From Candidatus Bathyarchaeota archaeon (GTDB lineage Archaea; Thermoproteota; Bathyarchaeia; 40CM-2-53-6): a DNA stretch of 64,000 nucleotides. The stretch spans positions 91,033 through 155,032 of the forward strand of contig CAVPLU010000009.1 in assembly GCA_963706285.1 (NCBI GenBank). The letters run 5' to 3'. The position numbers and the translations under genes were made by a program. Below, in pieces: positions 4,375 to 46,043 of the stretch; the stretch's first letter is position 1, and the number at the start of each line of letters is the position of its first letter. Under the pieces are notes generated by a model that was not told the DNA's origin, did not search any database, and was given only the letters and a program-made list of their open reading frames with translations.

Positions 4375-4552
4375 TGCGGGGGGTGGGATTCGAACCCACG
4401 AAGGCCTACGCCACAGGGTCTCCCAGATCCTCGGTGGTCCCGAGGGATCACCTAAGCTTGGCACCACGCGACTTCGAGGTCGCAGAGTCCTGCCCCTTAG
4501 ACCTGGTTCCCGCCTGGTTCGTTCAACTCGCCAGAGACTCGGGTACCCCCGC
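4375..4552 (-). tRNA. tRNA-Leu(UAG) with three BHB introns (15/16, 30/31, 37/38)
   Basis: Exons 4552-4538, 4506-4489, 4457-4451 and 4419-4375 join to an 85-nt cloverleaf: GCGGGGG/CCCCCGC acceptor, CAGGG/CCCTG anticodon stem, long variable arm, GTTCGAATC; each intron flanked by a 4-bp central helix and 3-nt bulges. Confidence 0.93.
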
Positions 4553-45590: not shown

Positions 45591-45742
45591 TATGTGACCT
45601 AGTCACATTGTGGAGCAGCGTTTTCTCTTGGACTCTCGATCAAGCCATGGCGCGGCTGACAGGAGCGCCGTAGGGCCTAATCTCGGCAAACGCCTCGACG
45701 AGCAAAGAACTTAAAGACTCATCTGCTCGCTTTCGCCGTGGT

Positions 45743-45910
45743 GCTCCGGTGGTGTAGCCCGGTTAACCCCGAGGCCGAGAGCATAGCGGCCTTATCCACT
45801 GGTGAGCCAGTGGAGGCCACTCGAGCCGTTGATCGCGGGAGATCGCTCGCAAGCGATCCGCGAATTCGAAAACGAGGCCTCTCTCGTCGCAAATCCCGCC
45901 CGGAGCACCA
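45743..45910 (+). tRNA. tRNA-Glu(UUC) with four BHB introns (20b/21, 34/35, 53/54, 59/60), CCA encoded
   Basis: Removing 45766-45779, 45794-45820, 45840-45864 and 45871-45893 gives a 79-nt cloverleaf: GCTCCGG/CCGGAGC, GCGGC/GCCGT, anticodon TTC, GCGGG-TTCGAAT-CCCGC, ACCA. Confidence 0.9.
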
Positions 45911-46043
45911 ATACAAGAATCGGTAGCCGTCTTAGTCTCGAACCTCAGTTCTTTGAGGCAACGGCTTCAACGTCTGAGGGCTTCACGACACAAACCTTTT
46001 GGTCACTTGAATCCATGAGGGAGAGAGACGGGTTGTCCGGCTC

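Follow-up and report, generated by a model that had tools for sequence, protein, structure and literature searches.

A tRNA-Glu(UUC) gene interrupted by four introns was identified in a metagenome-assembled genome (MAG) of the Bathyarchaeia. It is very likely a functional and probably single-copy gene whose introns are removed by proteins, the cutting and joining being what we infer from the gene itself, its relatives and the splicing enzymes of the genome. The gene occupies 168 nt of the window, the 64,000-nt stretch of DNA analysed here, and the introns make up 89 of these 168 nt (Table 1). The initial annotation, made from the letters alone, had proposed bulge-helix-bulge (BHB)-type introns at positions 20b/21, 34/35, 53/54 and 59/60, and both the cloverleaf that remains after their removal and the alignment with relatives bear this out. 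Recomputation from the sequence returned the same intron share and the same 6-nt micro-exon, TTCGAA, in the T loop.

Table 1. Features of the tRNA-Glu(UUC) locus (window positions) and other loci of the source genome mentioned in the text (contig and position).
Feature	Position	Strand	Length (nt)	Description
TATA-like element CTTAAAGA	45710–45717	+		Read directly; ends about 26 nt upstream of the gene
tRNA-Glu(UUC) gene	45743–45910	+	168	Five exons, four introns
Exon 1	45743–45765	+	23	Acceptor 5' strand, U8, D stem 5' strand, D loop to 20b
Intron 1	45766–45779	+	14	20b/21, relaxed BHB; 4-bp central helix, 1-bp flanking helices
Exon 2	45780–45793	+	14	A21, D stem 3' strand, 26, anticodon stem 5' strand, 32–34
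Intron 2	45794–45820	+	27	34/35, inside the anticodon, HBh'; 8-bp inner helix
Exon 3	45821–45839	+	19	35–53: remainder of anticodon loop, anticodon stem 3' strand, variable loop, T stem 5' strand
Intron 3	45840–45864	+	25	53/54, HBh'; 7-bp inner helix
Exon 4	45865–45870	+	6	Micro-exon TTCGAA, T loop 54–59
Intron 4	45871–45893	+	23	59/60; central helix with 3/4 pairs, 6-bp inner helix
Exon 5	45894–45910	+	17	60, T stem 3' strand, acceptor 3' strand, discriminator A, CCA (45908–45910)
Leu-like interrupted tRNA	4375–4552 (C9:95407–95584)	-	~178	At least three insertions; CTT in place of an encoded CCA
tRNA-Trp(CCA)	C13:120377–120597	-		Five insertions: 10/11, 28/29, 37/38, about 45/46, 59/60
tRNA-Pro(GGG)	C3:165484–165727	-	~241	At least five insertions
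RtcB	C4:105729–107043	-		Two adjacent frames
Second copies of tRNA loci of C6 and C4	C1:14034–14186; C20:1503–1613; C20:9022–9127

Gene structure and intron motifs

When the five exons are joined in silico, they yield a product of 79 nt including CCA, which ARAGORN recognizes as tRNA-Glu(ttc) with a full cloverleaf. All four stems are paired throughout, the D stem with two G-U pairs, and the product carries U8, A14, G18G19, U33, the T loop TTCGAAT, the discriminator A and an encoded CCA. From the unspliced DNA of the locus, ARAGORN returned 0 genes with the intron option on or off, and the Rfam library produced no match there at the gathering score. The expectation that standard annotators would miss the gene thus holds for ARAGORN and the Rfam tRNA model, the two that were run. 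Given that the five exons are collinear and lie on one strand within 168 nt, this is not a split or permuted tRNA gene.

In every intron, the four exon bases preceding the 5' cut pair with the four intron bases preceding the 3' cut, and all four of these central helices are flanked by 3-nt bulges. Their sequences are those originally reported, namely CGGT/GCCG, GGCC/GGCC and CGCG/CGCG with 4/4 pairs each and TTCG/CGCA with 3/4. The inner helices of introns 1–4 measure 1, 8, 7 and 6 bp and the outer helices 1, 0, 0 and 0 bp. Introns 2 and 3 fit the BHB definition fully, intron 4 has three of four central pairs and a 6-bp inner helix in the source genome, and intron 1, with four central pairs and 1-bp flanking helices, is a relaxed, bulge-helix-loop-like form. 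Contig C4 was sampled at 400,000 random places for each intron length, and motifs equal to or better than those of introns 1–4 occurred at frequencies of 7.2e-3, 7.5e-6, 2.5e-5 and 4.9e-4, respectively.

A custom BHB search, one of the checks suggested with the initial annotation, used a solver that lists BHB-like candidates and seeks sets whose removal leaves a cloverleaf. It returned the gene as the best solution on its contig, with a penalty of 4.0, against a best penalty of 7.5 in the reversed genome. With intron 1 placed instead at 14/15, where it would span 16 nt and leave a D loop of 9 nt, the score was equal here and better in six orthologues, but this placement was dropped because relatives free of the insertion show a continuous D loop of 11 nt.

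In the lowest-energy fold predicted for the precursor (-75.9 kcal/mol; z = -3.84 relative to shuffled sequences), the acceptor stem is formed, as are the motifs of introns 2 and 3. In the same prediction, positions 45776–45781 (CGAGAG, the end of intron 1 and the start of exon 2) pair with 45881–45886 (CUCUCG), displacing the hairpin of intron 4 by using its 3' half; this pairing may be due to chance.

Conservation and covariation among relatives

When 40 related genomes were searched with the DNA, all nine other genomes of the same genus gave matches. The same four insertions are present in eight of these congeners and in one genome of another family of the same order (G037). Across the resulting 10-sequence alignment, the exons vary at only two columns, a D-loop base in G006 and the change of G57 to A in G037. 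Exons 2, 3 and 5 are thus invariant in 10/10 sequences, exon 1 is invariant except for the D-loop base, and the micro-exon reads TTCGAA in nine orthologues and TTCAAA in one. All remaining variation, along with every change in length, falls within the introns. Where G57 has become A, the intron base paired with it has changed as well (pair 135/164).

Of the BHB helix cells in this alignment, 93.7% are paired. Nine pairs have changed on both sides, compared with 3.5 ± 1.3 in shuffled alignments, none of 500 shuffles reaching nine; the aligned sequences share ancestry, and this count is therefore not to be read as a probability. Sliding the partner columns yielded at most three doubly changed pairs against the real nine. 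Four of the doubly changed pairs lie in the inner helix of intron 2. The central helices of three introns, intron 1 among them, do not vary in the alignment and are neutral with respect to covariation, while the mismatched central pair of intron 4 is standard in 3 of the 10 orthologues and non-standard in the other 7.

The intron boundaries do not depend on the motifs, as a motif-free alignment with relatives that have one or two insertions placed the same four boundaries. Each insertion is missing from at least one relative in which the flanking sequence is contiguous. Among the six aligned genes, intron 1 is absent from three (G022, G033 and G034), in which exons 1 and 2 are continuous, intron 2 is absent from G022, and introns 3 and 4 are absent from G039, G033 and G034. 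The insertions are thus missing in orthologues, lie between conserved exons and vary while keeping their pairing. In total, 24 full-length genes from relatives were parsed (4 of them were left unsolved by the automatic solver); they range from 102 to 179 nt and carry one to four insertions, and none is uninterrupted.

At this place, the ninth congener, G005, has just a remnant of tRNA-Glu(UUC), made up of the promoter and the gene's first 16 nt, and a complete tRNA-Glu(UUC) lies about 750 bp downstream (L013, C1, reverse strand 1500–2445). In our reading, that gene also has four insertions, at 10/11, 20b/21, about 38/39 and 59/60. This arrangement looks like a gene replacement or rearrangement, i.e. 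recent intron turnover. In four loci from two other genera of the same family (L025, L026, L028 and L029; genera g2 and g3), an apparent exon of just 5 nt, TCGAG (positions 35–39), lies by eye between the 34/35 intron and a second long intron.

The core CTTAAAG of the TATA-like element, situated some 27 nt upstream of the gene's first base, is identical in 10/10 orthologues, including the one from another family. It fits an archaeal TATA box and would be expected to act as a promoter.

Intron or enlarged D loop

The weakest of the four motifs is that of the 14-nt insertion in the D loop. It could be proposed that only the other three insertions are true introns and that this one is kept as an enlarged D loop or removed by a route independent of BHB recognition. 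Neither flanking helix of the insertion reaches 2 bp, its central helix is invariant in the 10-sequence alignment, and a preprint on Asgard archaea describes D-arm insertions as often devoid of a canonical motif, some of them perhaps not being introns (bioRxiv 10.64898/2026.10.13.758758). Outside the genus, however, the helix does vary. All 19 loci with an insertion at 20b/21 have the 4-bp central helix, fully paired, and the 3-nt bulges, with three different 3' strands in use, and the strands ATCG and ACTG, found in two other families, still pair at 4/4 positions. Its length varies between 12 and 20 nt, a spread that a D loop with a structural role would be unlikely to withstand, and relatives that lack it have a normal D loop of 11 nt. 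In addition, alpha/beta EndA and a chimera bearing the specificity loop were reported to cut BHB and bulge-helix-loop substrates in the D loop (PMC3241643). We therefore regard the three-intron interpretation as improbable and treat the D-loop insertion as a fourth intron.

Copy number, integrity of the locus and distribution

Another intact tRNA-Glu(UUC) in the genome, which the initial annotation had named as a finding that would speak against the gene, was looked for, and none that is credible was found in the assembly. The DNA search of the assembly returned this locus and the 3' end of tRNA-Glu(CUC) only. A second TTC solution on contig C12, with seven 'introns' and a penalty of 8.0, falls inside the noise range of the reversed genome and was rejected. 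Likewise, no uninterrupted tRNA-Glu(UUC) was found in the searched assemblies that share the four-insertion architecture. The gene is thus probably single-copy; the source assembly (2.13 Mb in 21 contigs, 51% G+C) is 89.2% complete with 7.47% contamination, and an uninterrupted copy could lie elsewhere.

With this level of completeness and with standard tools making no call at the locus, one might suppose that the gene is decaying or non-functional and that a working tRNA-Glu(UUC) resides in the unassembled part of the genome. This is very unlikely, however, considering that 10 species share nearly the same exons but have introns that differ by 2–17% overall, with compensatory changes, and that the promoter-like element upstream is conserved. 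Nine other assemblies share the architecture, with no uninterrupted copy in those searched, and every one of the 29 tRNA genes resolved in this genome is interrupted. That the structure arose as an artefact of assembly or binning is hardly credible: the genome is metagenome-assembled and contaminated to the extent given, with contigs C1 and C20 duplicating tRNA loci of C6 and C4, but the same structure occurs in nine further independently assembled species records, and the searched stretch is at least partly present in 20 public runs from 15 studies, seven of which hold half or more of its sampled words. The 16 runs with the largest shares are labelled as wetland, peat or soil metagenomes. Of the duplicated loci on C1 and C20, one is identical to its counterpart and two differ mainly within introns, with at most one exon base changed, which fits a co-binned related strain given the contamination.

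The arrangement of the 53/54 and 59/60 introns was also searched for as an exact pattern in one genome per species across 185,579 species. It was found in 11 records, all titled as Bathyarchaeia or Bathyarchaeota MAGs. Nine of them parse with all four insertions and correspond to the loci already aligned, and the other two have three.

In four runs labelled as RNA libraries, contigs span positions 45691–45954 with all four introns retained, and none of these contigs joins across an intron; they are assembled contigs, which precursor RNA and DNA carry-over would yield alike, and they speak neither for nor against the existence of a spliced tRNA. At 95–99% similarity to the locus, they come from relatives, and the fact that contig cover stops on both sides of the gene is uninformative for assembled contigs. 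One contig in which 96 nt are replaced by 51 other letters was recognized as the gene of another organism rather than a spliced form.

Splicing enzymes encoded in the genome

Two loci of the genome match the catalytic domain of the tRNA-intron endonuclease. One encodes an EndA alpha subunit of 186 aa with both tRNA_int_endo domains, which aligns end to end with the catalytic subunits of Sulfolobus tokodaii (2cv8_A, 4.4e-40), Aeropyrum pernix (3p1z_B) and Pyrobaculum aerophilum (2zyz_B), the first two being its best matches in the PDB. Two of its lysines align with K44 and R46 of the A. pernix specificity loop. Hirata and co-workers reported that a loop of the A. pernix type confers broad substrate specificity (PMC3241643). 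The second subunit, of 174 aa, is a divergent paralogue that also has both domains. In a pairwise alignment, it has H at the Y of the conserved DFAVY stretch of alpha, in the catalytic region, and it may be the structural subunit. Its nearest relatives of solved structure are those of Methanopyrus kandleri (5x89_A) and Methanocaldococcus jannaschii (1a79_A) rather than crenarchaeal beta subunits.

Typing of the EndA supports the broad specificity that the initial annotation had supposed, in that the enzyme is of the alpha/beta type with the crenarchaeal loop to which such specificity has been linked. Such a crenarchaeal-type alpha/beta enzyme with a specificity loop is predicted to act on the introns described here. 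RtcB and archease are both encoded in the genome, so that by gene content the host possesses a predicted endonuclease for non-canonical positions as well as an RNA ligase. The RtcB gene is read in two adjacent frames that overlap by about 23 nt and cover profile positions 1–243 and 236–426; this may be an assembly frameshift, or the gene may be truly split or broken.

Proposed splicing route

Transcription from the conserved TATA-like element would yield a precursor of about 168 nt, in which each intron would fold into its own local motif, consisting of a 4-bp helix with the upstream exon and two 3-nt bulges. The alpha/beta EndA would cut inside every bulge, making eight cuts, and RtcB together with archease would ligate the five exons into a tRNA of 76–79 nt with its CCA already encoded. 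Introns 3 and 4 would be removed one after another, in either order, with ligation in between.

The initial annotation had argued that the 59/60 motif gains its outer helix only after the 53/54 intron is removed and that this implies an ordered splicing. The first part stands, as the outer helix of intron 4 grows from 0 bp in the primary transcript to 5 bp, the T stem, once intron 3 is gone. The implied order does not follow, because intron 4 already has its 6-bp inner helix, and a motif with such a helix belongs to the class accepted by alpha/beta enzymes. The micro-exon offers what we consider the stronger argument for cutting and joining one intron at a time. TTCGAA pairs with no other exon and would be freed if both flanking introns were cut while neither junction had yet been sealed, and the removal of introns 3 and 4 should therefore be sequential. 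There are precedents for such dependence. In the red alga Cyanidioschyzon merolae, intermediates seen by RT-PCR revealed a preferred order of intron removal (PMC3728597), and in archaea, cases were described in which one intron must go before the next motif forms (PMC8450103).

tRNA introns across the genome

The tRNA genes of the genome were surveyed from two kinds of anchor, an encoded CCA and an intact T-loop motif without CCA, supplemented by a relaxed local search near weak Rfam hits. Solutions with a penalty of up to 5.5 were accepted (the best reversed-genome values for the two schemes were 7.5 and 6.0), the near-duplicates on C1 and C20 were counted once, and all solutions above 5.5 were dropped except tRNA-Trp. 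The solver is blind to introns in the acceptor stem, to non-consensus T loops and to introns longer than 200 nt. The census comprises 28 genes with 63 introns, or 29 genes with 68 introns when tRNA-Trp is included, and represents a subset, with about 17 expected anticodons outside it. No gene in it is free of introns; 7 genes have one intron, 11 have two, 6 have three, 4 have four and 1 has five. The genes with four introns are those for Phe(GAA), Asn(GTT), Gln(TTG) and Glu(UUC), the one with five is tRNA-Trp, and tRNA-Glu(CUC) has three. Within its own genome, then, a tRNA gene with four introns does not stand out. The gene for tRNA-Trp, with a penalty of 7.5, was kept because five congeners have a full-length orthologue with near-invariant exons and variable introns.

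We lean towards viewing this genus, and to a lesser degree its order, as a third hotspot of tRNA introns, with about 2.3 introns per gene and a maximum of five, distinct from and probably independent of those in the Thermoproteales and the Asgard families. Not all congeners have the same four introns in tRNA-Glu(UUC), and the turnover of introns therefore appears to be recent. If the genus is such a hotspot, this turnover could be caught in natural populations, and exons of 5–6 nt would survive only where introns are cut and ligated one at a time.

These observations also bear on the annotation of MAGs. The usual quality standard for MAGs counts tRNAs and asks for at least 18. In this genome, the Rfam tRNA model finds 16 places at E <= 0.001 and ARAGORN finds none in the window, and such Bathyarchaeia bins will therefore look poorer than they are. 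The decoding capacity of comparable Bathyarchaeia bins will consequently be misjudged. For the evolution of tRNA introns, these archaea, whose congeners differ in which four introns they carry, provide a further comparison lineage for how introns arrive. For the mechanism, a 6-nt exon between two introns provides a direct test of ordered or ligation-coupled splicing of archaeal tRNAs.

Comparison with known systems

The presence of several protein-spliced BHB introns in one tRNA gene is of a kind already known. The novelty lies in the lineage, which belongs to the Bathyarchaeia, in a tRNA set that is interrupted almost throughout, and in the 6-nt exon, through which the order of splicing can be approached. 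The suggestion in the initial annotation that four introns may be unusual holds against the peer-reviewed maximum for archaea, given as "up to three" introns per tRNA gene (PMC8450103), and fails against the five reported in an October 2026 preprint, which describes 2.2 intervening sequences per gene in three Asgard families (bioRxiv 10.64898/2026.10.13.758758). In a search of largely open-access literature, no paper on a four-intron archaeal tRNA was found, nor one on tRNA introns of Bathyarchaeia.

A close counterpart is found in the Thermoproteales, in which short BHB and HBh' introns likewise occupy canonical and non-canonical positions, several per gene (PMC8450103, PMC3241643), and in which introns are also closely spaced, one being removed before the next motif forms, and are handled by an alpha/beta EndA with the loop. 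Among complete genomes, that of Pyrobaculum calidifontis is described as the richest, its 46 genes having 71 introns or 1.54 per gene (PMC8450103). However, the maximum published for this group is three introns per gene, as opposed to four in tRNA-Glu(UUC), five in tRNA-Trp and 68 in 29 genes here, and the Bathyarchaeia host, from wetland, peat or soil runs, is no hyperthermophile.

The Asgard families resemble the present case in that hardly any of their tRNA genes is free of insertions, a gene having about 2.2 on average and five at most, and in their weak D-arm motifs and insertions missed by standard annotation. Valentin-Alvarado et al. reported introns in 92–95% of the tRNA genes of three complete Asgard genomes (PMC11291895), and the preprint states that many D-arm insertions are missed by the annotator (bioRxiv 10.64898/2026.10.13.758758). 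These archaea belong to a different phylum from the Bathyarchaeia host, and the text of the preprint contains no word beginning with 'Bathy' or 'Thermoproteota'.

In C. merolae, a single nuclear tRNA gene can likewise bear BHB-type introns in its D arm, its anticodon loop and its T loop (PMC3728597), but the alga is a eukaryote, its genes hold no more than three introns each in that study, and the part of that account available to us describes no 6-nt exon. As for the enzyme, the alpha2beta2 EndA of A. pernix and S. tokodaii is paralleled by the end-to-end alignment of alpha, the loop with two basic residues and a divergent second subunit of two domains. The predicted Bathyarchaeia enzyme differs in its second subunit, which among solved structures is nearest to those of M. 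kandleri and M. jannaschii.

Other interrupted tRNA genes

The 65-nt intron of tRNA-Trp at 37/38 hardly differs among six genomes, whereas the gene's remaining four introns vary; this suggests that the 65-nt intron has a function of its own. Box C/D guides occur in the tRNA-Trp introns of other archaea. The Rfam match of this intron to sR19 is weak (15.2 bits, E 0.93), and a box C/D guide is unsupported here.

For tRNA-Pro(GGG), the best solution has a penalty of 7.0 and is not clean. Congeners match its 3' two-fifths only (query 153–288 of 321), and its two long 5' insertions, of 32 and 64 nt, may occur in this genome alone. The window also contains an interrupted tRNA gene with a Leu-like 5' end and T arm, again without a clean solution (penalty 7.0), of which Rfam matches the T arm alone at 14.6 bits.

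An encoded CCA is present in 13/13 full-length Rfam tRNA hits of the genome. It is absent from at least four other tRNA genes, namely those for His(GTG), Ser(GCT) and Leu(TAA) and a CAT gene, as it is from the Leu-like gene.
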